This document shows positions 1 through 61,974 of a stretch of 64,000 nt of DNA, in pieces. Source of the stretch: an uncultured Alphaproteobacteria bacterium (GTDB lineage Bacteria > Pseudomonadota > Alphaproteobacteria > RF32 > CAG-239); the NCBI GenBank assembly GCA_944393695.1, contig CALYAY010000002.1, positions 46,244 through 110,243 on the forward strand, written 5' to 3'. A program made the position numbers and the translations under genes. Below the pieces are notes generated by a model. The model worked only from the letters and a program-made list of their open reading frames with translations. It made no database searches and was not told where the DNA came from. Within the stretch, counting starts at the first letter, position 1; each line of letters opens with the position of its first letter.

Positions 1-493
1 TAGGAGCATCCGGGGTTTTATTTTGAGCAGCCGGAACATATCCGTTGCCGGTATTAACCGTCAGTTCCATATTCAGCTTGGCACCGGCATCAAGATTGCA
101 GATAACCAGCTCCGGATTTTTAATTTCCACATCATGACCCGTCTCAATCATTGCAGCGGTAACCTCACACGGCCCTTCCGCTTTCAGAGTCATTGTTTTC
201 GGACCTTCTCCGTTTACCGCCACGGCCAGACATTTAATGTTCAGCACAATATCGGTAACATCCTCTCTCACGCCGGGGATGACTGAAAATTCATGCAACA
301 CACCGTTAATCTTAATCGCGGTAACCGCACCGCCCTGCAGCGAAGATAACAAAATTCTTCTCAATGCATTGCCCAGCGTTAAACCAAAGCCGCGTTCCAA
401 AGGTTCAACCACAATCTTGGCCTTCTTTCCGCCCTCGGAAGTAACGTCCAGATTTGTCGGTTTAATCAATTCTTGCCAATTTTTTTGAATCAC
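1..493 (-). CDS. rpoA: DNA-directed RNA polymerase alpha subunit, N-terminal portion (runs off the window; GTG start)
   Basis: Minus-strand translation from the GTG at 493 gives [69 protein letters not shown]... and stays open to position 1. AAGAGGA SD 7 nt upstream. Canonical position after rpsM-rpsK. Not in the ORF track because it is partial. Confidence 0.85.
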
Positions 494-583
494 TGGTATG
501 TCCTCTTATTAGTGCATATGCAATTGTTAAAAACCGAAGAAGACGAGACTTTCAAAAGTCTCATCATCTTCAATAAACATAAA

Positions 584-973
584 TTAGACGCGACGTCTTT
601 TTCTCAAGCGACAGCCATTATGAGGAATAGGAGTAACATCACGGATTGTTGTAATGGTAAAACCTATTACCTGCAATGCTCTAATCGCAGATTCTCTACC
701 AGAACCAGGTCCTTTAACTTCAACTTCCAGAGTTTTCATACCATTCTCCTGAGCCTTTCTGCCGGCTTCCTCTGCGGCAATCTGGGCGGCATACGGAGTA
801 GACTTTCTCGACCCCTTAAAACCGTTAGCTCCTGCGGTTGACCAGGAAACCGTATTTCCCTGGGCATCGGTAATGGTTACTCTGGTATTGTTAAAAGTCG
901 AATTCACATGCGCAACACCGGCAGTGATATTCTTCTTTTCTTTTTTCTTTACACGTTGTACTGCTTTTGCCAT
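584..973 (-). CDS. rpsK: 30S ribosomal protein S11
   Basis: 129 aa with typical S11 sequence (..[27 protein letters not shown]..). Position between rpsM and rpoA. Confidence 0.95.
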
Positions 974-986
974 TTGGGATTACCTC

Positions 987-1355
987 TTATTTCTTCTTAT
1001 TTGCCACAGTCTTACGTTTACCTTTGCGGGTACGGGCATTTTGTTTTGTGCTTTGTCCGCGCACCGGCAAACCTTTGCGGTGTCTCAAACCTCTGTAGCA
1101 GCCGAGATCCATCAGTCTTTTGATATTAACACCGACCTCACGACGCAATTCGCCTTCGACCAGATAATCATGGTCAATAACTTCGCGAATTTTTGCAACA
1201 TCTTCATCAGACAACTGATGAACCCGCAGATCTGGGGAGATTCCCGATTTTGCGCAAATATCTTGAGCAGTTTTTCTTCCGATACCATAAATATAAGTCA
1301 GAGCGACTTCAATTCTTTTGGCAGTTGGAATATTTACACCAGCTATACGAGCCAA
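987..1355 (-). CDS. rpsM: 30S ribosomal protein S13
   Basis: 122 aa, [10 protein letters not shown]...[23 protein letters not shown], the S13 signature. Confidence 0.95.
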
Positions 1356-1417
1356 ATTAACTCTCCATTTTATTTAATTATTACCACATTTAAAAAGTTG
1401 ATCACCACTTTTCAAAA

Positions 1418-1454
1418 TTAAGCCGGATTATAGGCTATAATTTAATTGTGTCAA
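1418..1454 (-). promoter_or_regulatory. Candidate sigma70 promoter for rpsM-rpsK-rpoA
   Basis: Minus strand reads TTGACA - 16 nt - TATAAT about 60 nt upstream of the rpsM start. Confidence 0.45.
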
Positions 1455-1611
1455 CCTCCATTCGCAAAATTTTCTGAAAAAGTTCAATTTTTTCCAGAAA
1501 AATCTCATTTTAATAATATACAAAGTCAGTCTAAAGAGCTTTTTTTCATAAAAATCAATCGTTATTTCACTGCCTTCTGGCGATTCGCCGATTCTTTTTT
1601 TTCAACAAAAC

Positions 1612-2283
1612 TCAGGCGATTCCCAATACACTGTCGATTTTCTTGCTGACCGCCTCAATTGTGCCCGTCCCGTCCACACAACGCAACAATCCCTTCTTTT
1701 CAAAATAAGGAATTGTCGGATAGGTCAGAGCCCGGTAATTAACCAGACGATTCTGCACCGTTGTCCGGTTATCATCCACCCGGCGGTAAAAATCCGTTCC
1801 GCCACAAACATCGCAAACCCCGTAAATCTTTGGTTTTTGAAACTTGTCATGATAACCGGCACCGCACTTCATGCAGGCATAACGCCCCAAGATACGTTCC
1901 ATAATAATCTCATCGGGAACCTGTATCTCAATCACCGCATCAAGACTGATCCCTCTCTCGGCCAGCATCTTGTCCAGAGCCTCGGCCTGAGGCAGCGTCC
2001 GGGGAAAACCGTCCAGAATAAAACCGTTCTGGCAGTCTTCCTCATCGATTCTCTTGGCCACCATGTCAATAATCATCTCATCGGTAGCAAACTCACCCCG
2101 GTCAAGCAGGGCTTTCATTTCCAGCCCCAACGGCGTTGCCTTGGCAGCTTCCGCCCGCAGCATTTCTCCGGTTGAAAGATGCGGAATAGATAATTTCTCT
2201 TCCAGGATTCGCGCCTGAGTTCCCTTGCCGCAGCCGGGAACCCCGGTAAAGATAATATGCCGTCCTCTGCCGTTCTTATCCAT
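1612..2283 (-). CDS. adk: adenylate kinase with zinc-binding lid
   Basis: 223 aa. P-loop GxPGxGKGT, lid with CMKCGAGYH...CDVCGG (CxxC..CxxC). The secY-adk-rpsM order is typical of alphaproteobacteria. Confidence 0.9.
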   Translation of the reverse strand: MDKNGRGRHIIFTGVPGCGKGTQARILEEKLSIPHLSTGEMLRAEAAKATPLGLEMKALLDRGEFATDEMIIDMVAKRIDEEDCQNGFILDGFPRTLPQAEALDKMLAERGISLDAVIEIQVPDEIIMERILGRYACMKCGAGYHDKFQKPKIYGVCDVCGGTDFYRRVDDNRTTVQNRLVNYRALTYPTIPYFEKKGLLRCVDGTGTIEAVSKKIDSVLGIA

Positions 2284-3635
2284 TAGCGTTTTTTCCCTTT
2301 GTTGGCCAGAGCTGCTTTTTTAATCAGCCCTTCATATTGATAAGCAATCAGATGCGACTGCAGTTGTCCGACAAAATCCATCGTCACCTGCACCACGATG
2401 AGCAGCGTCGTTCCGCCCAAGACAAACGGCACCGACAGCTTGGAAATCAGGATTTCCGGCAAAATGCACAAAGCCACCAGATAAACGGCCCCCACCACCG
2501 TCAGACGGGTAATGACATAATCCAGATATTCCGCCGTATTTTTTCCGGGACGGATACCGGCAATAAAACCGCCGTGTTTTTTCAGATTATCCGCCGTTTC
2601 TTCAGGATTAAACACCACCGCCGTATAAAAGAATGCAAAAAACGCGATTAAAAAGGCATACAGTGCCAGATACAACGGCTGCCCGTGTCCCAGCAGCTGG
2701 CTCAGAGTCTGCACCCATTCCGGCCCGTTTTCTGCCGACAAATTGGCAATCGTAATCGGCAACAGCAGCAGCGAGCTGGCAAAAATCGGCGGAATAACCC
2801 CCGTCGGATTAATTTTCAACGGCAAATGCGAACTTTCCGCCGCCGTCATCCTCATCCCCATCTGGCGTTTCGGATATTGAATAATAACTTTGCGCTGAGC
2901 TCTTTCAACAAAAACAATAACATAAATCAGCACCAGCACCATAACCATCAGCAGGGCAATCAACCCCAGCGACATTGAGCCGACGCGTCCCAGTTCAAAA
3001 GTCTGAGCCAGCGCCGTCGGAATATTGGCGATAATACCCACGGTAATGATTAAAGACGAACCGTTGCCCACGCCGCGCGAAGTAATCTGCTCACCCAGCC
3101 AGACGATAAACATCGTTCCGCCCACCAGCGAAACAATTGTCGTAAACTTAAACACAAATCCCGGATTCACTACTGCCGAGATTCCCGCGCTCCCGGTCAT
3201 GCTCTCCAGACCGACGGCAATACCGTAACCTTGCACAATTGTAATCAACACCGTCAGATAGCGCGTCATCTGGGTAATCTTGCGATGCCCGGCCTCACCT
3301 TCTTTTTTCAAAGCAGCCAACGACGGAACTACAGATTGTCCCAGCTGAATAATAATGGATGCCGAAATATAAGGCATAATGTTCAGAGCAAAAATGGTCA
3401 TACGTTCCAAAGCGCCGCCGGCGAACATATTAAACATTCCGAGGATTCCGCCGGAATTTCTTGCAAAAATGTCCGACAAAACATGCGGATCGATTCCCGG
3501 CAGCGGAACAAACGTCCCCAGACGGAAAACAATCAAAGCAAAAACCGTAAACCACAATCTCTTTTTCAGTTCTTCAGCTTTGCTGAAAGCCCCGAAATCC
3601 ATATTCGATGCCATTTTTTCGGCTAAAGATACCAT
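2283..3635 (-). CDS. secY: preprotein translocase subunit SecY
   Basis: Multi-TM protein with conserved SecY blocks. The ORF is open to 3668, but an AAGGA SD precedes Met-12 (MVSLAEKMASNMDFGAFSKAEELKKRLWF...), so the start is placed at 3635. Stop overlaps the adk start. Confidence 0.9.
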   Translation of the reverse strand: MVSLAEKMASNMDFGAFSKAEELKKRLWFTVFALIVFRLGTFVPLPGIDPHVLSDIFARNSGGILGMFNMFAGGALERMTIFALNIMPYISASIIIQLGQSVVPSLAALKKEGEAGHRKITQMTRYLTVLITIVQGYGIAVGLESMTGSAGISAVVNPGFVFKFTTIVSLVGGTMFIVWLGEQITSRGVGNGSSLIITVGIIANIPTALAQTFELGRVGSMSLGLIALLMVMVLVLIYVIVFVERAQRKVIIQYPKRQMGMRMTAAESSHLPLKINPTGVIPPIFASSLLLLPITIANLSAENGPEWVQTLSQLLGHGQPLYLALYAFLIAFFAFFYTAVVFNPEETADNLKKHGGFIAGIRPGKNTAEYLDYVITRLTVVGAVYLVALCILPEILISKLSVPFVLGGTTLLIVVQVTMDFVGQLQSHLIAYQYEGLIKKAALANKGKKR

Positions 3636-3821
3636 TTCTATATCCTTATTATTCAATTTAAAAAACATAATCCGGGCACAAAAACCCTTTAAGCTAAGAT
3701 ATTAATACACTAAAAATTTTTTAATTCAACCCTTTTAATAAGGCTTTGGCATAATTTCTTAATAAAAAACGGCGAAAGAGATTTCCCTTCCGCCTGACTG
3801 ACTTTTTCCAGCCGTCTAATT

Positions 3822-5813
3822 CTAAAACTCGATCACCGGCCGGACGTCATACTCTTTATCTTTCTGCGGATAATTGGTTAATCCGTATGTTCCGCCGAAA
3901 AACGACCTCCAGGCCCCCAGATCGGCCGTATATTCCGTTGACGTCCACAAGAAAGAATTACTCCCCAACTGCACACCACCGGCTCGTAAGAAACCGGCAT
4001 TAACAGCAGACATATTATTATTAATGCTGTACATAATTCCCGCCGCCGGCAGGCACCAGGCGCTCATTCCTCCGGCACTGTAACCGTCAGCCGCCCAGGC
4101 CGCCGGATAATGAAGATGATTTCCGGCATCAAGTATCTTATCCGTATTGCCGCAACTGTCAAAATCCCCGCTGGCCGCCGAAGCTGACCCGTATCCTGGT
4201 AAATCGCCGATATCTCCGTAATCACCCCACTGATATGCCCCAATAGACTTCAAAGCCATTGCCCAGCATATCTCTTTATCTCGACTCTTATATCTGTACA
4301 CCACAACGCCAACCGGAGTTTTTCCGGAAACTTTTTCTGTACCGCAACTTCCGTCGCTGAAAAAAATATCTCCGATTTGACAATTCGCCGTACACCCTTT
4401 GTCTTCCTGCACAACCACCTTTTCGCAAATTCCGTTTTTCCAGACATATCCCGAGGCGCAACGGCATGACTGATATTTTCCGTCGCAGGATGAGCCGGAA
4501 CCGCCGGTTTCGTTGGCACCGCTGCAAGTATATTTATATGAGGAATCGCAGGTGCAGGTTTGAGAACTTGCATTCCAGACATAGCCCGACTGACAGCCGT
4601 TTTTGCAGTATTTGTTGGAACATTCCTCTTTCTTACAGGTGTAAGGGGATGGACATGAATCCATGGAACATTCATTGGGACAAGGTTTGCAGTTGTCATA
4701 TTTAATTTCAGTTCCCGATTGACAGGTGTTTGCGCCGGCTTCGGGCCCCATGCTGCCGCAATCCATATATCCCTCACAGGGATTAGGTTTGATTTTGTAC
4801 TTGGTCTTGCCGTCGCAGTCCAGACAAGCCTCGCCGTCTTGTACATAGCCTTCGGGAATGGTCGTATAATCATATCCCGCACCGCAGGGTGTACATTCAC
4901 AGGAAGCATATTTTCCGTCGCAGGCCTCTCCCACTCCATGATAAGGAGGCTCGCAAGTGACGTAATCACTGGGGCAAAGGGCCCGACAATATTCGAAATA
5001 ACGATTATCATACGGGCAGAAATTAACCGCCTCATATCCTTCTGGACAGGAGGTTTTCGTGTATCCTTCTTCTTCGCAGCGTTTCTCGTCATCAAGTTCA
5101 TAATCATCACCGCCGCCGGGAGGCACCCCGCCATTATCCTCATCGGCATTATTCCCAACAAACTCATTCCCGGAACAGTTGGTTATATCCGTCACAAAAC
5201 ACGCCGCCGCAAGTTGGATAAGATTGTTGTTGTCTCCCTCACCCTGCCCCTCTCCCCTCAAGGAAGAGGTATTTCTTTCAATGTCATACTCCAACTTGAT
5301 TGGAGTATCCAGGTCAGATAAAGCAGCTGATTTATTCCACCTGGATCCTCGGGTTAAACCCGAGGATGACTGTTTTGTTTTTTCTTCCCTCCCTAAAGAT
5401 TTAGGGCTGGAGGCAGAAAATATCTCCGACGGAGATATTTTCAACGACAGGCGAGAGTTTGTTAACTCATAAGCTAGCGGCAGCGAAGCGAAATGAGCGT
5501 TACAAACCGAATGACCGCAGCGACTTAGTGTTGCCCTTCCGGCAACACTTACGGAGCCAGAGGTAAGGGAGGGTTTGAAACCCTCTCTGTCTCTCCCTGA
5601 GTTTTCAGGGAGAGTAAGTTCGGCAAAATCTTCAAGTGAAGACAAATGTCCGGCCGTGAGGTGTGAAGTGTGTGTAGAAACATGTGATTTAAGCAAAGCC
5701 GGACTTAATGACAAAGGCGTATCATCAGGATTAAAACCAGCGTAACACAAATCAGCTCCGGCAATGAAGGGCATGCACGAAACCGACAACATGAGAACAG
5801 TCTTATTCATCAT
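3822..5813 (-). CDS. Secreted Cys-rich protein with a DUF1566/Lcl-C-like C-terminal domain; its N-terminal linker is built from palindromic repeats
   Basis: The ORF is open to 5849, but its paralog at 61996 starts at the homologous MMN... and shares the upstream motif ATAAGATTCGTGAAGACAA, so the start is placed at 5813. Signal peptide, many Cys (CP.GY..C, CEPPY.GVGEAC.GKYASCE), C-terminal block WCLPAAG...WTST...VRPVIEF resembling DUF1566 (family name from memory). Inserted between secY and rplO. Confidence 0.7.
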   Translation of the reverse strand: MMNKTVLMLSVSCMPFIAGADLCYAGFNPDDTPLSLSPALLKSHVSTHTSHLTAGHLSSLEDFAELTLPENSGRDREGFKPSLTSGSVSVAGRATLSRCGHSVCNAHFASLPLAYELTNSRLSLKISPSEIFSASSPKSLGREEKTKQSSSGLTRGSRWNKSAALSDLDTPIKLEYDIERNTSSLRGEGQGEGDNNNLIQLAAACFVTDITNCSGNEFVGNNADEDNGGVPPGGGDDYELDDEKRCEEEGYTKTSCPEGYEAVNFCPYDNRYFEYCRALCPSDYVTCEPPYHGVGEACDGKYASCECTPCGAGYDYTTIPEGYVQDGEACLDCDGKTKYKIKPNPCEGYMDCGSMGPEAGANTCQSGTEIKYDNCKPCPNECSMDSCPSPYTCKKEECSNKYCKNGCQSGYVWNASSQTCTCDSSYKYTCSGANETGGSGSSCDGKYQSCRCASGYVWKNGICEKVVVQEDKGCTANCQIGDIFFSDGSCGTEKVSGKTPVGVVVYRYKSRDKEICWAMALKSIGAYQWGDYGDIGDLPGYGSASAASGDFDSCGNTDKILDAGNHLHYPAAWAADGYSAGGMSAWCLPAAGIMYSINNNMSAVNAGFLRAGGVQLGSNSFLWTSTEYTADLGAWRSFFGGTYGLTNYPQKDKEYDVRPVIEF
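5282..5640. repeat. Mosaic of short palindromic repeat units lying inside the 5' coding region of the 3822-5813 gene
   Basis: 5282-5371 is near-identical to 63121-63209, and 5387-5530 to 61491-61632. Hairpin units include GGATCCTCGGGTTAAACCCGAGGATG, CATACTCCAACTTGATTGGAGTATG, CCCTCCCTAAAGATTTAGGGCTGGAGG, GTTGCCGGAAGGGCAAC, GGGTTTCAAACCC, CTCCCTGAGTTTTCAGGGAG. Confidence 0.8.
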
Positions 5814-5839
5814 AATAGCACCTCTGTTATTAATTACAT

Positions 5840-5858
5840 TTGTCTTCACGAATCTTAT
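5840..5858 (-). promoter_or_regulatory. Conserved upstream motif ATAAGATTCGTGAAGACAA shared by the two Cys-rich family genes (copy 1)
   Basis: Identical 19-mer about 25 nt upstream of the MMN start here and at 61956-61974. Confidence 0.45.
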
Positions 5859-5962
5859 AATAACAGAAAATTTGAGCGTTGTAAATCACTATTTTAATCT
5901 AAAGACCATAATTTAAACTAAAAATGAGGTTCCTTTTCGAAACCTCATTTTTTCTAAACATC

Positions 5963-6157
5963 CTAGTCCTCCAAATAGCGGAAATGCAATTTACCAATTC
6001 CCAGGCAAATCAAAGCAATCCATGCAAAAAGACCACCCATAAAAAATGCCCATTTAGCCACATCAAATTGACCTTGACATCCTGCCATCCAAAAGACCAA
6101 AACAGCAATTTCTGCAATAGTAACTCCTACCCAGAAAAAATTCTCACATTTTCTCAT
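5963..6157 (-). CDS. Small hypothetical membrane protein (2 predicted TM helices)
   Basis: 64-aa ORF with two hydrophobic stretches. No clear SD. Lies inside the secY|rplO insertion. Confidence 0.25.
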   Translation of the reverse strand: MRKCENFFWVGVTIAEIAVLVFWMAGCQGQFDVAKWAFFMGGLFAWIALICLGIGKLHFRYLED

Positions 6158-6244
6158 AATAAAAAAATTAATACATTAACAAAAATAATTGTACCATATT
6201 TGTCCACTGAACACAAGAACTTTTCTCCCCACTTTTTTAATTAC

Positions 6245-6269
6245 AAAAAAGCGGAGCTTCCGCCCCGCT
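6245..6269 (-). terminator. Rho-independent terminator just after rplO
   Basis: Minus strand AGCGGGGCGGAAGCTCCGC followed by TTTTTT. Confidence 0.5.
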
Positions 6270-6290
6270 CTGACAATCCTTTAAGGCTGA

Positions 6291-6752
6291 TTACGCAATA
6301 GTAACCTTGCCGCCGGCTTTTTCAACCGCGGCAATCGCTGCCTTGGAAGCCGAATTAACGGTAATGTTAATACTTGCCGTCACCGCACCGCGGGCCAGCA
6401 AACGAACACCATCCAGCTTCTTGCTGATAAGGTTCGATTTCAACAAATTTTCAACCGTAATCTCATTCGCAGACAACTTGCCGGCATCAATAGCCTTCTG
6501 AATGGTATCCAGATTAACAACGGCAAAAGTCTTGGCGAAATGATTTTTGAAACCGCGTTTCGGCAGTCTGCGGTACAAAGGCATCTGCCCGCCTTCAAAG
6601 GCGTTAATGGCAACACCGGAACGAGCTTTCTGGCCTTTCTGTCCCTTACCGGCAGTTTTTCCTGAACCGCTGCCGATACCGCGGGCCACACGCTTACGGC
6701 TCTTTCTGGCGCCTTCATTATCTCTGATTTCATTAAGTTTCATTGTGTTCAC
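6291..6752 (-). CDS. rplO: 50S ribosomal protein L15
   Basis: 153 aa, Gly/Lys-rich N-terminus ([20 protein letters not shown]) typical of L15. Confidence 0.95.
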
Positions 6753-6841
6753 CTAATTTTCTTATTATTAAACTCAGCATAAAATTTCAAAACCCGGTTC
6801 GGAGGATGTCTCTGCCTGAACAGAACATCCTCCTTTTCCGA

Positions 6842-7024
6842 TTATTCCGAAACCTTAACCAGATGACTGACTTTTTTAATCATCCCGCGGATAGCCGGAG
6901 TATCTTCAAGCTCTCTGGTCTTGCCCACTTTATTCAGCCCCAGACCGATAAGCGTAGCTTTCTGGCTGTCCGGACGACCGATAGTGCTTCCCGTCTGAGT
7001 AACTTTTATTGTTTTCTTAGCCAT
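6842..7024 (-). CDS. rpmD: 50S ribosomal protein L30
   Basis: 60 aa, [30 protein letters not shown]. Confidence 0.9.
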
Positions 7025-7027
7025 CGG

Positions 7028-7591
7028 TTAAGCCTCCTCTTTTTCCATCTTGATGTTTGAAGAGTTTTCACGGCGGCTCACAATATCGCCAACTTTCTTA
7101 CCGCGCTTGGCAGCAACCATTCTTGGCGAATTGATCGACAGCAGGGCGTCAAAGGTCGCTTTAATCATGTTATAGGGATTATTTGATCCCAATGATTTCG
7201 CAACCACGTCCTGAACACCGAGAACTTCAAAAATTGCACGCATCGGGCCGCCGGCAATAACACCGGTACCGGCAGGAGCAGTTCTGAGAATAACTTTTCC
7301 CGCACCGAAACTGCCTTTCACATCATGGTGCAGAGTTCTTCCCTCACGCAGAGGAATGCGAACCATGTTTTTCTTGGCCTCATTGGTAGCCTTGGTAATA
7401 GCATCGGGAACTTCGGTTGCTTTTCCGGAACCATAGCCGACCCGGCCTTTCTGGTCACCGACCACAACAACCGCAGCAAACGACATATTACGTCCGCCTT
7501 TAACGGTCTTGGCCACACGGTTAATATGAACCAGTCTCTCGACCAATTCTTCTTTCTTTTCTGTTTTACGACGATCTACAGCTTGTGCCAT
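7028..7591 (-). CDS. rpsE: 30S ribosomal protein S5
   Basis: 187 aa, [29 protein letters not shown]. Confidence 0.95.
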
Positions 7592-7601
7592 CTTACATCT
7601 C

Positions 7602-7964
7602 CTAGAATTTCAAACCGGCAGTACGAGCTGCATCGGCCAAAGCCTTGACACGGCCGTGATAAAGATATCCGCTCCGGTCAAAAACCACTTCGCTAACACC
7701 GTTCTTAACAGCCCGTTCGGCAATAACTTTACCGACAAAACCGGCCGCTTCAACCGTAGACGATTTTTTAATGCTGTCGCGGACTTCTTTATCCAAAGTC
7801 GAGGCAGAAACCAAAGTGGCACTTTTCAAATCGTCAATAATTTGCGCATAGATATGCTTACCACTGCGAAAAACAGACAGCCGGGGCTTTCCGTTCGAAG
7901 CGTTTTTCAAAGCTGTTCTGATGCGCGCTCTTCTCTTTTCAAATAACTTTTTTGGCGTATTCAT
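7602..7964 (-). CDS. rplR: 50S ribosomal protein L18
   Basis: 120 aa, [18 protein letters not shown], typical L18. Confidence 0.95.
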
Positions 7965-7974
7965 TTACTTATCC

Positions 7975-8511
7975 TTATTTCTTCTTGCCTTCTTTACGAC
8001 GGATATTCTCGCCTTCAAATTTAATACCTTTTCCTTTATAAGGTTCCGGCATTCTGTATTTGCGAATATTCTGGGCGACCTGTCCGACCAGCTGCTTGTC
8101 AGCACCGGCAATAGTAAGCTGCGTCGGGCTGGAGCAGGTAATCGTAATGCCCTGAGGAATAGCAAAGTTAACATCATGAGAAAAGCCCAGAGACAAAATC
8201 AACTCTTTTCCGGCAACGCGGGCTTTATAACCAACGCCGACCAGCTCCAGATTTTTCTTAAAGCCCTCATGAACACCTTTAACCAGGGTATTGATTTCGG
8301 CTCTGGTTGTTCCCCACAAAGCCCGCGCGGTCTTGGACTGCGACAGGGGAGAAACGACAACTTTGCCGTCTTCCAGCTTAACGCTGACATGAGAAGTGTC
8401 AAATTTAACACTGAGTTCACCCAGTTTACCTTTAGCCTTAACAATATCGTTCTCAACAGCCACGGTAACATCGTTCGGGACAACAACAGGATATTTACCA
8501 ATTCTAGACAT
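7975..8511 (-). CDS. rplF: 50S ribosomal protein L6
   Basis: 178 aa, MSRIGKYPVVVPNDVTV... Confidence 0.95.
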   Translation of the reverse strand: MSRIGKYPVVVPNDVTVAVENDIVKAKGKLGELSVKFDTSHVSVKLEDGKVVVSPLSQSKTARALWGTTRAEINTLVKGVHEGFKKNLELVGVGYKARVAGKELILSLGFSHDVNFAIPQGITITCSSPTQLTIAGADKQLVGQVAQNIRKYRMPEPYKGKGIKFEGENIRRKEGKKK

Positions 8512-8523
8512 CCATTTTCTCCC

Positions 8524-8922
8524 TTAAAATACCTGACAAAGAACTTCACCGCCGACATTAGCTTTACGGGCTTCATTATCACTCATCACACCCTGCGGCG
8601 TGGAAATAATAGAAATACCCAAGCCGTTATACACTCTCGGCAGATCTTTAACAGAAGAATACACTCTTCTGCCCGGAGTGGAAACGCGGTAAATTTCAGT
8701 AATTACGGAAGTACCTTCATGGTACTTCAATTTAATATGAAGTTCATCGATTCCGGGCTTGACATTAACACGTTCATATCCGGCAATGTACCCTTCTCTC
8801 TTCAAAACTTCCAAAACATTTTCACGCAGGCGAGAAGCCGGAGATACGACCTCATTCTTCTTCGCTCTTTGTGCGTTTCTAATGCGTGTGAGCATATCGC
8901 CCAAAGTATCAGACATAGACAT
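8524..8922 (-). CDS. rpsH: 30S ribosomal protein S8
   Basis: 132 aa, [14 protein letters not shown]. Confidence 0.95.
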
Positions 8923-8936
8923 AGTCTTATCCCTCC

Positions 8937-9242
8937 TTACCAGCTTGACTTAACCAAACCGGGAATTTCACCAAAGTTGGCCATGTCTCTCAGGACATTG
9001 CGGCACAACCCGAACTTCCGGTAAACACCACGTGAACGTCCGGTAATCTTGCAACGGTTCTTAATTCTGACCCGAGAAGAATTACGCGGCAATTCATTCA
9101 GCTTCTGACTGGCCTGAAATCTCTCTTCCGGAGACGCATTCTTGTCATCAGCAATTTTCTTTAACTTAAGACGGCGGTTAGCATATTTCTCAGCCATCTT
9201 AATTCTTTTCAAGTTTCTGTAAACTGAACTTGTTTTTGCCAT
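8937..9242 (-). CDS. rpsN: 30S ribosomal protein S14
   Basis: 101 aa, [13 protein letters not shown]...CRNVLRDMA. Confidence 0.95.
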
Positions 9243-9256
9243 TCTACAATCTCCGT

Positions 9257-9796
9257 TTATTTCTTGTAAGGCAGGTTAAAAGCCGTCAGCAGGAACTTTG
9301 CTTCTTCATCGGTTTTGGCCGAAGTGCAGATAACAATATCCATACCTCTTACATTTTCAACCTTCTCATAGTTGATTTCCGGAAAGATAATCTGCTCTTT
9401 GATACCAAAAGCAAAATTACCTCTGCCATCGAAGTTTTTGCCGGTAATACCGTGAAAGTCCCTGATACGCGGCAAAGCCATGTTAACCAGTCTTTCAAGA
9501 AACTCATACATTCTGTCCGAACGCAGAGTAACCTTGCAGCCGATCGGCATATCTTCTCTCAGCTTAAACGTAGCAATTGATTTGCGGGCTTTGGTAACAA
9601 CCGGCTTCTGACCGGCAATCAAAGCCATTTCTTCAACAGCATTGTTCAGTTTCTTCTTATCGGTAACGGCATCACCGATACCCATATTCAAAACGATTTT
9701 AGTCAGCTTCGGAATCTCGTGGGGATTTTTGTAACCGAATTTTTCCACCAGAGATTTCTTAATGACTTCGTTATAAAGTTTTTCAAAATTTGTCAT
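9257..9796 (-). CDS. rplE: 50S ribosomal protein L5
   Basis: 179 aa, ...[11 protein letters not shown]...FHGITG... Confidence 0.95.
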
Positions 9797-9807
9797 TAGA
9801 TTTTCCC

Positions 9808-10128
9808 TTACTTATCGATTACTTCACCGGACTTACGAGCAACACGGACTTTTTTGCCGTTCACTTCTTTATAGCCGACTTTGGTTGCCTTATTGGTCTT
9901 GGGATCAACAATGGCAACATTGGAAACATGAATCGGTGCTTCTTTGGTAATAATGCCGCCGGTAGTAGTTTGGCTGGGTTTGGTGTGTCTCTTAACCAGA
10001 TTAACACCCTGAACAACCACTTTACCTTCCTTCGGCATGGCTTTAACAACCTCACCGGTTTTGCCCTTGTCGTCACCCGACAGAACAATAACCTGATCAC
10101 CTTTTTTAATTCTAAGTTTAAGGCTCAT
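9808..10128 (-). CDS. rplX: 50S ribosomal protein L24
   Basis: 106 aa, [21 protein letters not shown] (KOW motif). Confidence 0.95.
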
Positions 10129-10496
10129 TATAAAACCTCCGGTGCTAATGAAATTATCTTCATAAATTTCTTCGCACGCAGTTCCCTCGTAACAGGCCCG
10201 AAAATACGGGTGCCGATAGGCTCGCCGTCTTTATTGATAAGAACTGCTGCATTGGTATCAAAACGAATGACACTGCCGTCTTTGCGTCTGATATCACTAG
10301 CGGTGCGAACGATTACAGCTTTAAGGACATCGCCTTTTTTCACACGTCCTTTCGGCATAGCGTCTTTAACGGAAACGACTATGACATCACCGACCGTTGC
10401 ATGCATTCTCTTAGACCCGCCGAGGACCTTAATGCACTGCACCTGACGTGCTCCTGAATTGTCTGCAACATCCAGGTTGGTTTGCATCTGAATCAT
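10128..10496 (-). CDS. rplN: 50S ribosomal protein L14
   Basis: 122 aa, [17 protein letters not shown]... Confidence 0.95.
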
Positions 10497-10515
10497 TTCT
10501 TACTTTCCTTTTCTC

Positions 10516-10752
10516 TTAGGCGTTATCAACGATCACAGTCCATTTTTTGGTCTTGGAATAAGGTTTTGCTTCCTCAATGGAAACCTTATCGCCGATCTTG
10601 AACTGATTGTTTTCATCATGAGCCGCAAACTTTTTGCTTCTCTTAACGAATTTCTTATAAACAGGATGCATAATCTGACGCTCAACGCTGACCACGACGG
10701 TTTTATCCTGTTTATCACTCACAACAACACCTTGAAGAATTCTTTTAGGCAT
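10516..10752 (-). CDS. rpsQ: 30S ribosomal protein S17
   Basis: 78 aa, [20 protein letters not shown]. Confidence 0.95.
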
Positions 10753-10763
10753 ATTTTTTCTCC

Positions 10764-10961
10764 CTAACTATTCTTCTTGCGCTCAGCAATGAGCGTGTTG
10801 ATTTTTGCTATTTCACGACGGACATTTCTGATAACCGAAGTATTCTGCAATTGTCCGGTAGACTGCTGGACTCTCAAATTGAACTGTTCTTTTTTCAGAT
10901 CAATCAACTTGGTTTCCAGTTCATCCAGTGACATAGCACGAAGATCTTTTGTTTTAACCAT
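10764..10961 (-). CDS. rpmC: 50S ribosomal protein L29
   Basis: 65 aa, [24 protein letters not shown]. Confidence 0.9.
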
Positions 10962-10965
10962 ATTA

Positions 10966-11391
10966 TTATTCTCCCAAATCCGAGTTCAGACGTTTAACAA
11001 ACTTGGTCTTAATGCCCAGTTTGGCAGCACCCAGGGCAAAAGCCTGCCGTGCGGTATCTTCGTCAATATCTCCGGCTTCAAAAATAATGCGGCCGGGTTT
11101 AACTCTTGCGCACCAGTATTCAACCGATCCCTTACCTTTACCCATACGGACTTCGGCAGGTTTATCCGAAACCGGCACATCCGGGAATATTCTGATCCAT
11201 AATCTTCCGGCTCTCTTCATTTCTCTGGTAATAGCGCGTCTGGCAGCTTCAATCTGACGTGCAGTAACGCGATCCGGAGTAAGAGCCTTCAATCCATATG
11301 AACCGAAACTTAATTCAGATCCGCCTTTGGCCAAACCGTGAATACGGCCCTTATGCTGCTTGCGGAACTTTAATCTTTTTGGACTTAACAT
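10966..11391 (-). CDS. rplP: 50S ribosomal protein L16
   Basis: 141 aa, [16 protein letters not shown]. Confidence 0.95.
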
Positions 11392-11536
11392 TTCTTATAT
11401 TACCTTTATTTCCAATCTCAATCAGGCTTATTAAGAAGCCCGGGCAGAAAAATTTTACCGACACTATACATTTATAGACGAATTTTGTCAAATATATTTT
11501 TTCTGCCTCGGTATAACTCCTTAAACACCTGTTGAA

Positions 11537-12205
11537 TTATTTTTGTTCAGCCAACTTTTTATCCTGAGCCATGGGATCATGGGTCATAATTTCACCCTTA
11601 TAGATCCACACTTTCACGCCGCAGGCGCCATAAGTTGTATGAGCCGTAGAGGTTGCATAATCAATGTCAGCGCGCAGTGTATGCAAAGGAACGCGCCCTT
11701 CGCGATAGTATTCCGTTCTGGCAATTTCGGCGCCGCCGAGACGACCTGAACAGCAAACCTTGATACCTTCTGCACCCAGACGAAGAGCCGACTGCATAAC
11801 TCTCTTCATTGCCCGGCGGAAAGCCACGCGGCGTTCCAGCTGCTGGGCAACGGAATCAGCAACCAGCTGAGCATCCAGCTCGGGTTTTCTGACTTCCAGA
11901 ATATTCAACTGGACTTCGGAATCAGTCATCTTCTGAATCTCTTTTCTCAGATTCTCGATATCCTGCCCCTTCTTGCCGATAACAATACCCGGTCTTGCAG
12001 AATGAATGGTAACTCTGGCTTTCTTAGCCGGACGTTCAATCACGATTCTGCTGACACCGGCCTGAGCCAGTTTATTTTTCAAGAATTTCTTGATTTTAAC
12101 GTCTTCGTGGAGATAGTCGGTGAACTTATCGTCGGCATACCAACGAGAATCCCATGTACGGTTAACTCCTAAACGAAGACCTGTCGGATTTACTTTTTGT
12201 CCCAT
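11537..12205 (-). CDS. rpsC: 30S ribosomal protein S3
   Basis: ORF is open to 12232, but the canonical S3 N-terminus [13 protein letters not shown] begins at Met-10, giving a 12205 start with no overlap on rplV. KH domain present. Confidence 0.93.
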
Positions 12206-12209
12206 TAAC

Positions 12210-12584
12210 TTACTCCCCACGCTCAGTAACAACGATGGTCAGGTTAGAGAACGGCTTCAAAACTCTGGCGCCTCTGCCGCGACCACGTGCGTGCATACGT
12301 TTCATAACTAAGCCCTTACCGACATAAGCTTCACTGACATAAAGCTTGTCGATATTGAGCTGGTGATTGTTCTCGGCATTTGCAATTGCAGACTGCAAAA
12401 CACCCAGAGCGGTTTTGGCAATTCTCTTCTTAGAAAAGCTAAGTTCGGCAACAGCCTTCTCGGCACTCAGACCGCGAATAGACCGTGCAACCAGATTCAG
12501 CTTACGAGGCGAAGTACGAATAGAGTTGCAATAGGCCATAGCCTGATTAGCTTCAACTCTTCTTGTCATTTTAGTCTTGCTCAT
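12210..12584 (-). CDS. rplV: 50S ribosomal protein L22
   Basis: 124 aa, typical L22. Confidence 0.95.
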
Positions 12585-12586
12585 AA

Positions 12587-12865
12587 TTAACCTCTCTTAG
12601 CTTTCTTGTCGCCGCCATGACCATAGAAAGTGCGGGTGGGGGCAAATTCGCCAAACTTGTGGCCGACCATATCTTCGGTAACCAATACCGGAATAAATTT
12701 ATGGCCGTTGTGAACGCCGAAAGTCAACCCGACAAACTGCGGCAGCATGGTAGATCTGCGAGACCAGATTTTAATAACTTCATTACGACCTGAACTTCTC
12801 GCCGCATCAGCTTTCTTAAGAAGATAGCCGTCAACAAATGGTCCTTTCCAAACGGAACGTGTCAT
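12587..12865 (-). CDS. rpsS: 30S ribosomal protein S19
   Basis: 92 aa, SVWKGPFVD...HNGHKF. Confidence 0.95.
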
Positions 12866-12877
12866 TAGCTTTTCTCC

Positions 12878-13714
12878 TTATTTCTTTTTGTTTTCATGAC
12901 GGGATCTCATAATAAAGCGATCCGTCTTCTTGTTGGAACGAGTCTTATAACCCTTAGTCGGCTTACCCCAAGGTGTCGTCGGATGACGACCGCCGGAAGT
13001 GCGACCTTCACCACCACCCATCGGGTGGTCAACCGGGTTCATGGCGACACCGCGTGATACAGGACGATTACCCAGCCAGCGGTTGCGACCAGCCTTGCCG
13101 AGCATATTGTTCTGATTGTCCGGATTGGAAACCGCACCAACGGTTGCCAGACATTCTTCGCGGACAATACGCAGCTCACCGGAACTCAGCTTCAGCTGGG
13201 CATAACCGGCATCCTTACCGACAACCTGGGCATAACAGCCGGCCGAACGCACCAACTGACCGCCCTTTCCGGCCTTCAGTTCGATATTGTGAACAATCGT
13301 ACCGACCGGCATGCTCTTCAACGGCATAGCATTACCCGGCTTAATATCAGCCTTTACAGCCGAAATAACCTTATCACCGGCTTTCAGTCTCTGCGGAGCC
13401 AGAATATAAGATTTTTCACCGTCTTCATAGCTGATCAAAGCGATGAAAGCTGAACGGTTCGGATCATACTCAATTCTCTCGACTGTCGCTTCTGCATCAA
13501 ATTTATTACGTTTAAAGTCAATGATACGGAGCTTGCGTTTGTGACCGCCGCCAATTCTGCGACTTGTAACGTGTCCGTAATTGTCACGCCCACCGGTCTT
13601 GGTCAGACCGATTGTCAAAGACTTCTCCGGAGCCCCTTTATACAGCTCGCTTCTGTCAACGATAACAAGCTGACGCAGTCCCGGGGATGTGGGCTTATAA
13701 TTCTTCAAAGCCAT
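12878..13714 (-). CDS. rplB: 50S ribosomal protein L2
   Basis: 278 aa, ...[20 protein letters not shown]... Confidence 0.95.
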
Positions 13715-13717
13715 GTC

Positions 13718-14038
13718 TTAAATTCCTGTTGTAACATCAATATTTTGACCCTCGGCAAGTGTAACCACAGCCTTTTTGTAGTCAGAACGCTGACCGACAA
13801 ATCCTCTGAAGCGCTTTTCCTTGCCGAACTGACGAACTGTATTCACCTTTGTAACTTTAACGTTAAAAATAGCCTCGACAGCTGCCTTAACTTCATCCTT
13901 GGAAGCGCTCAGCGGAACCATAAAGGTCACCTTGCCGGCTTCCGAAGATGTCATTGACTTTTCGGTGATTACAGGACGAATTAATGTATCATACATTTTA
14001 GCAGTAACATTACTTGCGGTTTTCTTGGATTTTATCAT
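13718..14038 (-). CDS. rplW: 50S ribosomal protein L23
   Basis: L23 sequence ([13 protein letters not shown]...). The ORF is open to 14059, but the start at Met-8 abuts the rplD stop with no overlap. Start is uncertain. Confidence 0.85.
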
Positions 14039-14661
14039 TTCAATCTTTCCTCCAGGCAATTAACTGCATCTTTGGTCAACACTAATTTGTCTCTTCTCAA
14101 GATGTCATAAACATTGGCTCCAATAGTCGGCAAAACATCAACGTTTGCAATATTTCTGGTTGCCAATGCAAAGTTTACATCAACTTCCTTGCCGTCAATA
14201 AACAAGCAATTTTTCAACCCGCAAAGATCAAGCTTGGCTTTCAGATCTTTGGTTTTCGGAGCTGACAATTTTGCTTCGTCAATAACAACAAGGTTACCCT
14301 CTTTGGCCTTGGCCGAAAGAGCGGTTTTCAGACCAAGCTTTCTGAACTTCTTGGTCAACTCGTGTGAATGGTCACGAACAACCGGACCAAACACCACACC
14401 ACCTTTTCTGAACTGGGTACCCTTGCGTGAACCCTGACGGGCATTACCGCTGCCTTTTTGCTTAAACGGTTTTGCCGGGGTCAGTGCCACGTCGGAACGT
14501 CCCTTTGTTTGGTGGTTGCCGGACTGCAACCTGGCCAGCTGCCAGTTTACAACCCTGTGCAAAATATCGGCACGAACTTCAAGCCCGAAAATGGCATCAT
14601 TAAGCTCGATGGAACCGACATTTTTATTTTCCAGATTTAAGATGTCCTGTTTCATATTCAT
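14035..14661 (-). CDS. rplD: 50S ribosomal protein L4
   Basis: 208 aa, typical L4. Confidence 0.95.
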
Positions 14662-14674
14662 TAATCCTTATCAC

Positions 14675-15403
14675 TTATGCATTTTCAGCCGGAGTTTCGT
14701 TTTCGGCTTTAACTGCAACAGGTTCATCAGATTTCTTCAATCCGGCAGGCATCGGCAGTTCAACCGGGCTGGCAATTTTAACGGCATCGGTAACGCGAAC
14801 CCAGGCATTTTCACCTCCGGGAACACCACCCTTAACCATCAGCAGGCCCTTGCCCGCATCAACCGCAACAACCTTCAGGTTCTGAACGGTAACCCGCTCG
14901 TCACCGAGATGTCCGGCCATTTTCTTACCCTTGAATACCTTACCGGGATCCTGTCTTTGTCCTGTAGAACCGTGTGCACGGTGAGAAATCGACACACCGT
15001 GAGTTGCTTCCAGACCGGCAAAATTATGGCGTTTCATAACACCGGCAAATCCCTTACCTTTTGATGTTGAGCAAACATCAACATACTGACCTGCAACAAA
15101 ATGTTCTACAGATAATTCATCACCGACGGACAGCAGACAGTCATCACTGACTCTGAATTCTGCAAGTTTCTTTGTCGGTTCAATATTAGCTTTGGCAAAA
15201 TGTCCTTTAAGAGGCTTGGATACATTTTTCTGTTTAACAGCACCGGTACCGAGTTGTACGGCAGTATATCCGTCGCGCTCTTTGGTTCTTACGTCGACAA
15301 CTTTCAGCCCCTCAACGCTCAAGACCGTCACCGGAACATGGGTTCCGTCGGCTTCAAAAATGCGGGACATTCCAAGTTTCTTTGCGATTAAACCCGTACG
15401 CAT
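14675..15403 (-). CDS. rplC: 50S ribosomal protein L3
   Basis: 242 aa, L3 with a C-terminal extension. Confidence 0.95.
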
Positions 15404-15507
15404 TATTATTTTTTCCTTTTCAATTGGTTGATTTTATCTTTCAAAAACCAACATTGTTTTATAACCTCTTTAACCCTGACCGCCCGTTTTCGGCCGGCTG
15501 TACTGGA

Positions 15508-15819
15508 TTAAAGCTTAATTTCAACATTAACACCGGCAGCCAGATCCAGCTTCATCAAAGCATCGACTGTCTGCGGGGTCGGATCCACAATATCCAGAAG
15601 TCTTTTATGAGTACGGATTTCGAACTGTTCACGGGATTTCTTGTCAACGTGAGGAGAACGGTTAACCGTAAATTTCTCAATTCTGGTCGGAAGAGGAATA
15701 GGACCTCTTACATTAGCACCTGTTCTTTTGGCCGTATGCACGATTTCTTTGGTAGAAGCATCAAGCAGACGATGATCAAAAGCCTTCAGGCGAATTCTTA
15801 TATTTTGAGCTTCAATCAT
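15508..15819 (-). CDS. rpsJ: 30S ribosomal protein S10
   Basis: 103 aa, [20 protein letters not shown], the S10 signature. Confidence 0.95.
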
Positions 15820-48729: not shown

Positions 48730-49076
48730 CACAAGCCCGGCCTCCGGGCTTTTTTCTTTCCTCTCATCCCCATCCTCTTTTCCTCACCCTCCTTTCTTCA
48801 TGCCACCCTCAGTCTCTTCTCTTTTGTCATCCTCGGGTTAAACCCGAGGATCCAAGTAAAAAAATCATCCTTTTATCCTCCCCTAAAACATTAGCCCCCT
48901 AACTTATTCTCCCCCTATAGTTATAGGGGGAATTAGAGGGGGTATGGCAATGTCATCCCTCGTTCAGCGTCAGTCTGAACGTCAGGGGATCTTCCTTATT
49001 GCCCTCTCCCCTTTCAAAAGGGGAGCCGGTGGGGTCAAATATCAGCCGCTTTTCTCACCTCTCCTCTCAAGGGTGA
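48730..49076. repeat. Intergenic cluster of the same palindromic repeat family upstream of family copy B
   Basis: 48826-48853 is the CCTCGGG..CCCGAGG hairpin. 48951-49047 is near-identical to 61693-61788 (hairpins CGTTCAGCGTCAGTCTGAACG and CTCCCCTTTCAAAAGGGGAG). Also CCCCCTATAGTTATAGGGGG and CACCTCTCCTCTCAAGGGTGAGG. Confidence 0.8.
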
Positions 49077-61955: not shown

Positions 61956-61974
61956 ATAAGATTCGTGAAGACAA
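61956..61974 (+). promoter_or_regulatory. Conserved upstream motif ATAAGATTCGTGAAGACAA (copy 2)
   Basis: See 5840-5858. Confidence 0.45.

Follow-up and report, generated by a model that had tools for sequence, protein, structure and literature searches.

In the window, the whole 64-kb stretch of DNA analysed, rplO and secY both lie on the minus strand and are kept apart by 2,655 nt (positions 3636-6290). The gene order from rplP to rpsK is fully retained on one strand, and rplO and secY keep their order despite the insert. The spacer contains two genes, one for a 64-aa protein with two transmembrane (TM) helices and one for a 663-aa secreted Cys-rich protein, each with its own predicted terminator; three predicted terminators and two promoter-like sites are present between rplO and secY. 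The features, in the direction of transcription, are as follows.

6291..6743, minus strand: rplO (ribosomal protein L15; Pfam Ribosomal_L27A, E 3.1e-20)
6248..6271, minus strand: predicted intrinsic terminator directly 3' of rplO (10-bp stem with 6 GC pairs, T-run; -18.5 kcal/mol)
5963..6157, minus strand: 64-aa two-TM-helix ORF, with homologues in the same spacer of relatives
5920..5952, minus strand: predicted terminator hairpin of the 64-aa gene (14-bp stem and U-run; -19.7 kcal/mol, z -5.7)
5857..5885, minus strand: sigma-70-type promoter-like TTTACA-17-(TG)TATTAT of the large gene (10/12 consensus positions, extended -10 TG)
5636..5849, minus strand: structured 5' leader of the large gene (perfect inverted repeat, folding, covariation)
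3822..5813, minus strand: large ORF for the 663-aa secreted Cys-rich protein, ATG at 5813
5407..5561, minus strand: palindromic repeat module of 153 nt (51 codons), in frame in the linker, missing in the L081 allele
3771..3794, minus strand: predicted intrinsic terminator of the large gene (10-bp stem and T-run; -22.7 kcal/mol, z -4.5)
3669..3737, minus strand: clade-conserved block upstream of secY (TTGAAT 3729-3724, 17 nt, (TGT)ATTAAT 3706-3701)
2283..3635, minus strand: secY, 450 aa (Pfam SecY, E 2.5e-107)
1612-2283, minus strand: adk, next after secY (Pfam ADK, E 8.5e-52)

The rplO gene is the last ribosomal-protein gene of spc, and its 150-aa start is also called in three related assemblies (L081, L082 and L099). 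The start of secY is almost certainly ATG 3635, because the AAGGA ribosome-binding site is conserved and relatives have the same gene calls; the candidate ATG 3668 was rejected, as it is not conserved. The true spacer therefore begins at 3636 and not at 3669, where an earlier note on this DNA had begun an otherwise real insertion. The same note rightly gave rplO its own terminator, a few bases off at 6245-6269, rightly saw a 64-aa two-TM ORF behind it, and recognised the large secreted Cys-rich gene, whose product has 663 rather than 664 residues; in this form, with its start at ATG 5813, it is identical to the database protein P0001. The upstream motif that the note ascribed to the large gene is upheld as a promoter common to a gene family (see below), and the hairpin that it placed downstream, at about 3775-3805, is a terminator at 3771-3794.

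ORF and Pfam inspection revealed no integrase or transposase ORF in the window spacer, no direct repeats were found flanking it, and a tRNA scan of the window gave none near the locus, the nearest tRNAs being at 55-57 kb. Spacer GC is 0.41-0.50, like the surroundings, and composition is continuous across the region. The spacer does not qualify as a genomic island or integrative mobile element. An Rfam search of positions 3400-6900 at E<=1 gave no match.

The rplO-secY junction across the clade

The junction was surveyed with one genome per species, in an ingroup of 59 species with SecY at least 75% identical and an outgroup of 21 species; eight ingroup species gave no call, leaving 51 informative. 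The window is from an uncultured gut alphaproteobacterium, whose relatives carry the database labels 'uncultured Azospirillum/Alphaproteobacteria' and Candidatus Scatocola. The spacer is no longer than 300 nt (a tight junction) in 12 of the 51 informative ingroup species and measures 301-4,742 nt, with unrelated insertions, in 20. In the other 19 secY is unlinked, with no rplO within at least 3 kb upstream; the ingroup genomes are metagenome-assembled and some of these secY genes could reflect binning or scaffold errors, though the contigs are contiguous. Outgroup spacers are no longer than 300 nt in 20/21 species (median 150 nt). Among 16 consecutive junctions from rplP to rpsK, used as a control, only rplO-secY varies in the ingroup, with 20/32 spacers longer than 300 nt and the partner absent in 16; at the remaining 15 junctions no spacer exceeds 300 nt except at adk-rpsM (2/49), and medians are -2 to 163 nt. 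Breakage of the rplO-secY linkage, which the earlier note called rare, is so in bacteria generally (PMC8046335) but not in this clade, where 39/51 informative species have it interrupted or broken. The exact arrangement of the window is not common to all relatives, and the large gene is present at this seam in one species-level group only.

The cargo varies even among the four closest other species: none in L008, an HD-domain gene in L001, a member of the large gene's family in reverse orientation in L002, and an IS200-like TnpA with an HD-domain gene in L011. Further species have ankyrin, NUDIX, GNAT or peptidase S51 genes at the seam. Where secY is unlinked, the genes upstream of it mostly occur there in one species only, which points to many independent events, their number being approximate. 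The 64-aa ORF has homologues (34-47% aa identity) in the same spacer of L003, L005, L007, L009, L010 and L015; it has a dN/dS of 0.09 (window vs L082) and matches no Pfam or NCBIfam family. The 64-aa gene is an older resident of the spacer than the large gene.

The large gene belongs to a sizeable multicopy family, which is wholly unannotated. Members are also found at ruvC/exbB, at pyk/ABC-F and after rpoA, and rpoA/rplQ is a second seam hit in the clade by this same surface-protein family. Alignment shows the family promoter and 5' region to be near-identical at all such sites, the promoter also in other species, and at three different loci the 5' cassette starts right after the T-run of the preceding gene's terminator. 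A family-internal 19-mer matched eight metagenome contigs, one of them labelled seawater.

The signals flanking the seam are widespread in the clade. A terminator is predicted 3' of rplO at 26/32 ingroup loci vs 1/21 outgroup loci, and the secY promoter motif at 38-43/59 vs 0/21. Throughout the clade the motif reads TTGNAN-17-ATTAMN, has an extended -10 TG and is located 40-75 nt before secY; in the alignment it is kept whatever the spacer size, with rplO at 112 nt, kilobases off, or absent. Its version in the window, TTGAAT-17-ATTAAT, is the only match in the 64 kb (0.03 expected by chance), and is not the new promoter that the earlier note had supposed. We infer that secY-adk is driven by this predicted extended -10 promoter of its own; some read-through past the predicted rplO terminator into secY may still occur.

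Proposed uncoupling of the spc operon

We consider it likely that spc was uncoupled into two units and that the resulting neutral seam then became a hotspot for insertion and rearrangement, into which a self-contained adhesin-like gene was inserted. The rplO terminator and the promoter of secY-adk would cut the clade's spc operon into two transcription units, freeing secY of read-through from the ribosomal genes and rendering the rplO/secY seam selectively neutral. The seam could then be left empty, filled with unrelated accessory genes, or broken by rearrangement, depending on the species; in the window species it would hold two autonomous monocistronic units, the older 64-aa gene and the family member. 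Because it is self-contained, with promoter, leader, signal peptide and terminator, the family gene could be inserted between a terminator and a promoter with its neighbours undisturbed. Uncoupling would have preceded the insertions, an order read from the presence of both signals in tight-junction species.

That the insertions were targeted, with a transposase or recombinase recognising hairpin terminators and mobilising the family gene or its modules, and with this seam as a preferred target, appears rather unlikely. The start of the 5' cassette directly behind a terminator T-run at three loci fits such a mechanism, as do the palindromic modules that accompany family genes in both orientations in coding and non-coding DNA, the IS200/Y1 transposase in the same spacer of L011, and the hit by the same family at rpoA/rplQ in the same clade. 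The window spacer, however, is without transposase, integrase, tRNA or flanking direct repeats, and the cargo elsewhere consists mostly of ordinary metabolic genes lacking any family or repeat signature. Targeting would also be compatible with the uncoupling proposed here, and would not exclude it.

A functional coupling is improbable. In this case the large protein, the 64-aa protein or both would owe their place by secY to shared regulation with the Sec translocon or to an action on it, and the 64-aa protein could serve as an accessory subunit or as a leader that monitors secretion. Although at least seven species have the 64-aa ORF conserved in this spacer, oriented like secY and under purifying selection, and the large protein is predicted to be a Sec substrate, predicted terminators part all three units, many relatives are without the 64-aa ORF, and L003 and L005 have other genes between it and secY. 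The large gene's restriction at the seam to a single species-level group, with paralogues beside unrelated genes, likewise speaks against coupling.

The large gene, its leader and its product

The leader of the large gene is predicted to be highly structured. Its helix would form between a 14-nt stretch where the mRNA is predicted to begin (5849-5836) and codons ~55-59 of the gene (5649-5636); in the loop between them lie the ribosome-binding site, GAGGTG at 5824-5819, ATG 5813 and the signal-peptide codons. The computed folding energy is -73 kcal/mol (z -5.95), and in this predicted structure the ribosome-binding site is base-paired. Covariation analysis of the helix finds 88.7% of cells paired vs 40-53% in shifted registers, and four pairs with compensatory changes. 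Inverted repeats of 11-14 nt surround the segment with the ribosome-binding site, ATG and signal peptide in all copies, and this segment has a single orientation among 11 assembled copies. An RNA helix is favoured for the inverted repeat because five copies have G-T (G-U) pairs. Two candidates for an inverted (OFF) orientation were rejected: L094 (P0108), among family proteins starting at or after the 3' arm, has a deletion of ~70 nt, and the second copy of L081 has a frameshift.

The 153-nt module in the linker is missing from the 97%-identical allele in L081 and is thus a presence/absence polymorphism. Non-coding DNA contains copies with 93-94% identity, one at window positions 61491-61632 and one, reversed, in L085 (5602-5753); the module's predicted fold has -54 kcal/mol (z -4.4). 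Being dispersed, polymorphic, and located both in non-coding DNA and within ORFs, it is an RPE-like in-frame palindromic element. Rickettsia palindromic elements (RPEs) were reportedly shown by Ogata and colleagues in 2000 to insert in frame into protein-coding genes. Like them, the modules here are about 90-155 nt long, palindromic, dispersed, non-coding as well as in-frame, and alphaproteobacterial; unlike them, they cluster in and around one gene family rather than in diverse genes genome-wide. They sit in a disordered linker, and the likeness drawn here is one of features.

The predicted parts of the large protein are a signal peptide, a linker that is disordered and derived from repeats, a stalk rich in disulfides and a C-terminal head; of its 42 Cys, about 32 are in the stalk and 6 in the head. 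The putative signal peptide, judged by inspection, reads MMNK followed by TVLMLSVSCMPFIAGA and D, which would fit n-, h- and c-regions and an AxA-type cleavage site between AGA and D, and is conserved in the family. Pfam and NCBIfam searches with the protein, its two halves and two paralogues assigned no family, not even with cut-offs of E<=10 or E<=1. A single-sequence search of PDB sequences matched only cytochrome cL (E 0.21), which is spurious. The gathering threshold of Pfam Lcl_C (PF07603, DUF1566), 34.9 bits, is not reached: neither the large protein nor its C-terminal domain has a match at E<=10, and family members ~50% identical in the head domain score 12.5-28 bits. A profile comparison with the C-terminal domain (CTD) of the Legionella pneumophila Lcl adhesin (PDB 8q4e) gives E 0.072 with the W-LP, WSS-E and VR-V motifs aligned, and viral DUF1566 proteins match at E 3e-8 to 6e-6. 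Matches at E 4e-14 to 1e-5 come from predicted phage proteins, among them tail fibres and DUF1566 proteins of crAss-like phages.

The head is predicted to have an Lcl_C/DUF1566-like C-type-lectin fold with its core motifs. It shares W-x-LP, WSS-E and VR-V with the Lcl CTD, and the two proteins are alike in being secreted (predicted here) and in their layout of stalk and head, but here a disulfide-rich stalk replaces the collagen-like one, and the head has 6 Cys whereas the Lcl CTD has no disulfides (PMC11162425). The Bacteroides ovatus 'fimbrial protein' BACOVA_04982 (PDB 4eps) and gut-phage tail-fibre/DUF1566 proteins are 13-24% identical; their N-terminal parts are unrelated, and the large gene is without their pilus or phage gene context. 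Most likely, Sec exports the large protein, which would then act, either displayed or released, as an adhesin or a glycan binder built of stalk and head, a reading based on fold similarity at 13-24% identity.

Between the window and L082, dN/dS of the large gene is 0.19 overall and 0.09-0.12 in the folded domains, which are under purifying selection, and the Cys-rich segment has a dS of 1.84 vs 0.30 for secY. The protein's diversity arises mainly from the exchange of segments with paralogues and from palindromic modules that are gained or lost in frame. That the long ORF fails to encode a single genuine protein, with the true start lying past the repeats or the frame being a decaying pseudogene open by chance, is very improbable: residues ~85-200 are translated palindromic repeats predicted to be disordered, and some other family copies are frameshifted or have 5'-region deletions, yet dozens of members are open from the conserved signal peptide across linkers of about 25-153 aa, no alternative start codon or ribosome-binding site is found near the CFVTD motif, the promoter and ribosome-binding site are conserved at the upstream start only, and the folded domains have the low dN/dS given above.

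The dispersed repeats within the large gene and the metagenomic source would be the grounds for suspecting an artefact or chimera, in which a repeat-rich family gene was misjoined into the ribosomal cluster, but this is extremely unlikely, given identical junctions on both sides in four independent assemblies, made from separate samples with different assemblers, a composition continuous through the region, and homology with relatives that restarts exactly at the rplO stop codon and the secY promoter block (at about 3737 for L008, L001, L002, L011, L004 and L007). L099, from a different ENA sample, is 99.987% identical over window positions 1-15813, and L081 and L082, from two further samples and assemblers, have SecY 99.6-99.8% identical. 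All three show the order rplO, 64-aa ORF, large gene and secY, in agreement with the 2.6-kb insertion that the earlier note had described.

A broader possibility, put forward tentatively, is an undescribed contingency system of gut alphaproteobacteria, a repertoire of modular surface proteins with stalk and lectin head, encoded in portable units, with leader-gated or inversion-switched expression and with variation by exchange and modules. Portable promoter-to-terminator genes would colonise terminator/promoter seams, two of them inside the ribosomal super-operon, which is otherwise close to inviolable. Pairing of the mRNA 5' end with codons ~55-59 would bury the ribosome-binding site and gate expression or, alternatively, the same inverted repeat would be a DNA inversion switch; diversity would come from paralogue segment exchange and the in-frame RPE-like modules.

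Comparison with known systems and significance

Relative to the canonical spc operon (rplN ... rpmD-rplO-secY-adk, within S10-spc-alpha), the gene order is the same and the other junctions are tight, but here a predicted terminator follows rplO, secY has a dedicated predicted promoter, two unrelated genes are inserted over 2.65 kb, and the junction is hypervariable or broken across the clade. Among the Gammaproteobacteria and Bacilli studied by Brandis (2021, PMC8046335), secY lies outside spc in one species, Bacillus selenitireducens. Insertions into ribosomal operon clusters, such as tusDCB between rpoBC and str, bfd-bfr between str and S10, and nrdHEF between rplL and rsmC, tend in that study to precede loss of linkage in descendants, and are interpreted as relaxing selection for synteny (PMC8046335). 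The present case resembles these in having a few unrelated genes at a seam and in that linkage is often wholly lost. It differs in that the seam lies within a normally single operon, that the cargo is species-specific and not one ancestral insertion, and that the events are far more frequent (39/51 species), with the second seam, rpoA/rplQ, behaving alike.

Few bacterial gene arrangements are as conserved as the S10-spc-alpha cluster, and this clade forms a natural series in which one internal junction is intact, filled with varied cargo, or broken. The presence of the predicted terminator/promoter pair in all of these junction states fits a rule by which uncoupling would lift the operon constraint, with insertion and dispersal following after. 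This bears on work with gut metagenome-assembled genomes in which synteny of the ribosomal cluster serves as a marker for phylogeny or binning. The cargo also brings to light, in Alphaproteobacteria of human and animal guts, a family that lacks annotation and probably consists of surface adhesins; it has a candidate new cis-regulatory leader and in-frame palindromic repeats, and could be relevant to host or phage interaction in this uncultured lineage.

The rplO-secY junction in the window

The spc operon of the window is interrupted between rplO and secY by two open reading frames, each with its own putative signals.

Features at the rplO-secY junction
7028-7591, minus: rpsE
6842-7024, minus: rpmD
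6291-6743, minus: rplO
6271-6248, minus: rplO terminator, stable hairpin and U-run (-18.5 kcal/mol, z -2.4)
6157-5963, minus: 64-aa ORF with two hydrophobic helices
5952-5920, minus: second terminator, hairpin and U-run (-19.7 kcal/mol, z -5.7)
5885-5857, minus: promoter-like TTTACA-17-TATTAT with extended -10 TG
5824-5819, minus: ribosome-binding site GAGGTG
5813 (ATG) to 3822 (stop), minus: 663-aa ORF
3794-3771, minus: third terminator (-22.7 kcal/mol, z -4.5)
3729-3701, minus: promoter-like TTGAAT-17-ATTAAT, followed by secY and adk

A conserved ribosome-binding site and ATG, together with the gene calls in relatives, place the secY start at 3635 and not 3668, and the rplO-secY spacer is therefore 2,655 nt. 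With these small corrections, the insertion described in an earlier note is confirmed. It is no assembly artefact, as the gene order is identical in three further assemblies of the species: L099, which derives from an independent ENA sample, matches window 1-15813 at 99.987% identity with the arrangement unchanged, and L081 and L082, from two other samples, encode SecY proteins 99.6% and 99.8% identical to that of the window. Homology with insert-free relatives ends at the rplO stop codon and restarts at ~3737, roughly 100 nt 5' of the secY ATG.

The cargo genes and their family

At least six other species carry homologues of the 64-aa ORF (34–47% identity) in the rplO-secY spacer, the shortest such spacer being 608 nt with nothing else inside. 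The dN/dS of the ORF relative to L082 is 0.09. It is a real gene and an older resident of the spacer. Directly upstream (window 6160-6200), GTTAATGTATTAATTT repeats by eye the secY -10 core TGTATTAAT, with only ~10 nt separating the core copy from the ATG; the gene is possibly leaderless, or driven by a copy of the secY promoter.

Of the 217 homologues of the 663-aa protein, none is annotated and every one derives from a gut metagenome. An AlphaFold2 model from an alignment of 79 sequences, numbered one ahead of the true residues, shows disorder over residues 1-240, a beta-rich module with 32 Cys predicted with confidence over 241-470 (pLDDT 83–90), and a head of very high confidence over 480-664 (pLDDT about 95). 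The beta-rich module has only weak EGF-, TNFR- or Pfs25-like matches. The head matches generic C-type lectin domains, and gut-phage tail-fibre and DUF1566 proteins with E values of 4e-14 to 1e-5; matches to Pfam Lcl_C are sub-threshold only, and come only from relatives. Lcl-CTD is a trimeric C-type-lectin-like head that contains DUF1566 and binds glycosaminoglycans (PMC11162425). From the predicted fold we infer an adhesin or glycan binder with a stalk-and-head layout, secreted or at the surface, and a putative new addition to the C-type-lectin / Lcl_C-like adhesins with partly unusual genetics.

Paralogues elsewhere occur as single copies between housekeeping genes (ruvC|exbB in L083 and pyk|ABC-F in L085), and also directly 3' of rpoA in the species of the window. 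Those in the window are listed below; the copy between rplO and secY has the look of a stalk-only and head-only pair of this kind fused into one gene.

Other family genes in the window
49130-49945, plus: head-only member, 271 aa
61996-63057, plus: stalk-only gene, 353 aa, adjacent to the head-only gene at 63698
63698-64000, plus: head-only gene, running past the window end

Copies share 79–99% DNA identity over the promoter and leader (~110 nt of upstream sequence) and through codon ~60, and only about 40–55% protein identity in the mature parts. In the rplO-secY copy the predicted mRNA 5' end (5849-5836) forms a perfect 14-nt inverted repeat with codons ~55-59 (5649-5636); the predicted long-range helix between them has the ribosome-binding site, the ATG and the signal-peptide sequence inside its loop. 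Folding of the 227-nt leader is predicted at -73 kcal/mol (z -5.95), and both the ribosome-binding site and the start codon are paired in that structure; further arm pairs lie at window 61967-61979 / 62160-62172 and at L097 6-204. Ten family copies retain the helix through three complementary arm pairs (AAATGT / ACATTT, AACAACA / TGTTGTT and AAGCT / AGCTT) and G-U variants. In the leader alignment A7, 88.7% of cells pair versus 40–53% in shifted registers, four pairs have changes on both sides, and the covariation score is reached by none of 500 shuffles, the sample being small and the sequences related. An Rfam search of the leader gave no match. The helix is a good lead as a candidate cis-regulatory RNA, and a DNA inversion site is less likely.

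The large protein is 80% identical between conspecific genomes (SecY, 99.8%), with a dN/dS of only 0.09–0.19. Between window 3822-5813 and L082 6001-7875, dS is 1.84 in the Cys-rich segment and 0.41 in the head domain; for the flanking genes it is 0.30 in secY, with secY and adk both at about 0.3. By the high dS in the Cys-rich segment and the low dN/dS, the source of variation is exchange of diverged segments, not relaxed or positive selection on point mutations; the dS values indicate that a diverged paralogue or allele replaced this segment through recombination. The linker from 'THTSHL...LSSLEDF' to 'AACFVTD' spans about 25–153 aa across family members, in frame throughout. That of the window copy contains a 51-codon palindromic module, which is missing from the 97%-identical L081 allele and has copies in non-coding DNA elsewhere (93–94% identity, either orientation).

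Dispersed palindromic modules of ~90–155 nt (window 5279-5561, 48822-49047, 61412-61853 and 63118-63209; L085 5602-5880) lie 5' and 3' of family genes and, in frame and translated, in the linker of the large gene, a pattern that resembles Rickettsia palindromic elements. Several family copies carry disruptions at or close to the CA-rich tract encoding 'THTSH' (L081 12446-12700, L094 2409-2470 and the database protein P0100), by a frameshift at the tract in the second L081 copy and in P0100, and by a ~70-nt deletion just 5' of it in L094; pseudogenes, noise in the assemblies and on/off variation of the slippage type are possible readings. Elsewhere in the window a perfect 52-nt direct repeat (57292-57343 and 57468-57519, 176 nt apart), whose second copy overlaps the end of tRNA-Gly(GCC) (57501-57575, minus), could mark, as an att-like scar, an integration or excision event at the tRNA.

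The junction across the clade

A SecY scan of one genome per species gave 80 loci. The 59 with SecY identity of at least 75% constitute the ingroup, which comprises metagenome-assembled genomes from gut and rumen, deposited as uncultured Alphaproteobacteria, 'Azospirillum' and Candidatus Scatocola (placed by NCBI in Rhodospirillales); 21 more distant Rhodospirillales-like loci serve as the outgroup.

Spacing of rplO and secY (ingroup, n=59; outgroup, n=21)
300 nt or less: ingroup 12, outgroup 20
301-1,000 nt: ingroup 6, outgroup 1
1,001-2,500 nt: ingroup 11, outgroup 0
More than 2,500 nt: ingroup 3, outgroup 0
rplO not within at least 3 kb upstream of secY: ingroup 19, outgroup 0
Too short to tell: ingroup 8, outgroup 0

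In a control that measured each of the 16 consecutive junctions between rplP and rpsK, rplO-secY is the only variable one in the ingroup, exceeding 300 nt in 20 of 32 spacers and missing its partner in 16; no other exceeds 300 nt save adk-rpsM (2 of 49). Three unlinked ingroup species carry rplO inverted downstream of secY. Spacer cargo includes an ankyrin-repeat protein, HD-domain proteins, an IS200-type transposase, a NUDIX, GNAT and peptidase S51 trio, and several large proteins without known function; in L002 the family of the window's large gene is represented in reverse orientation. Because the four closest other species (SecY 94–95%) have four different spacer contents, and the upstream neighbours of unlinked secY genes are mostly species-unique, the sequences indicate many independent events. 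The transposase, a Y1 gene in the spacer of a sister species (L011 4551-4886; Pfam Y1_Tnp, E 4.7e-19), may be relevant to DNA gain by hairpin-rich seams.

The clade has a second hotspot at the rpoA|rplQ junction, viewed downstream of rpoA in the survey loci L001-L080. In the ingroup rplQ follows rpoA within 300 nt in 11 species, after gaps of 412–4,228 nt in 13, and is missing within at least 1.5 kb in 12; in the outgroup the pair is tight in 18 of 18. Just past the left edge of the window, L099 15321-19000 has rpoA, two family genes and htpG, without rplQ, the family genes being a 416-aa Cys-rich type (database protein P0099) and a 279-aa head-only type.

The element upstream of secY, earlier taken for a new promoter, was not made by the insertion: in the cross-species alignment A3, GTTGAATTAAA...TAGTGTATTAATA is conserved in the clade across spacers of 155–261 nt, kilobase inserts and unlinked secY. 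Its core RTGTATTAM is present in 43 of 59 ingroup and 0 of 21 outgroup loci, 17–74 nt (mostly 39–74 nt) 5' of the SecY tblastn match start, and the full TTGNAN-16..18-ATTAMN element in 38 of 59 and 0 of 21. An intrinsic terminator lies 3' of rplO in 26 of 32 linked ingroup loci versus 1 of 21 outgroup loci. We propose that the spc operon was transcriptionally split in the clade ancestor, after which the seam would have been free to take up DNA and also to act as a rearrangement breakpoint. At other ribosomal-cluster seams, lineages with insertions are described as having descendants in which the linkage is lost completely (PMC8046335), a pattern that rplO-secY in this clade matches; secY lies outside spc in only one of the Gammaproteobacteria and Bacilli examined there (PMC8046335). 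The insertion is real but not the singular breach of a universal linkage that it had seemed, and is one species-specific filling of a seam opened by the whole clade. The rplO-secY seam of these bacteria is an unusually clear case of known operon-cluster erosion.
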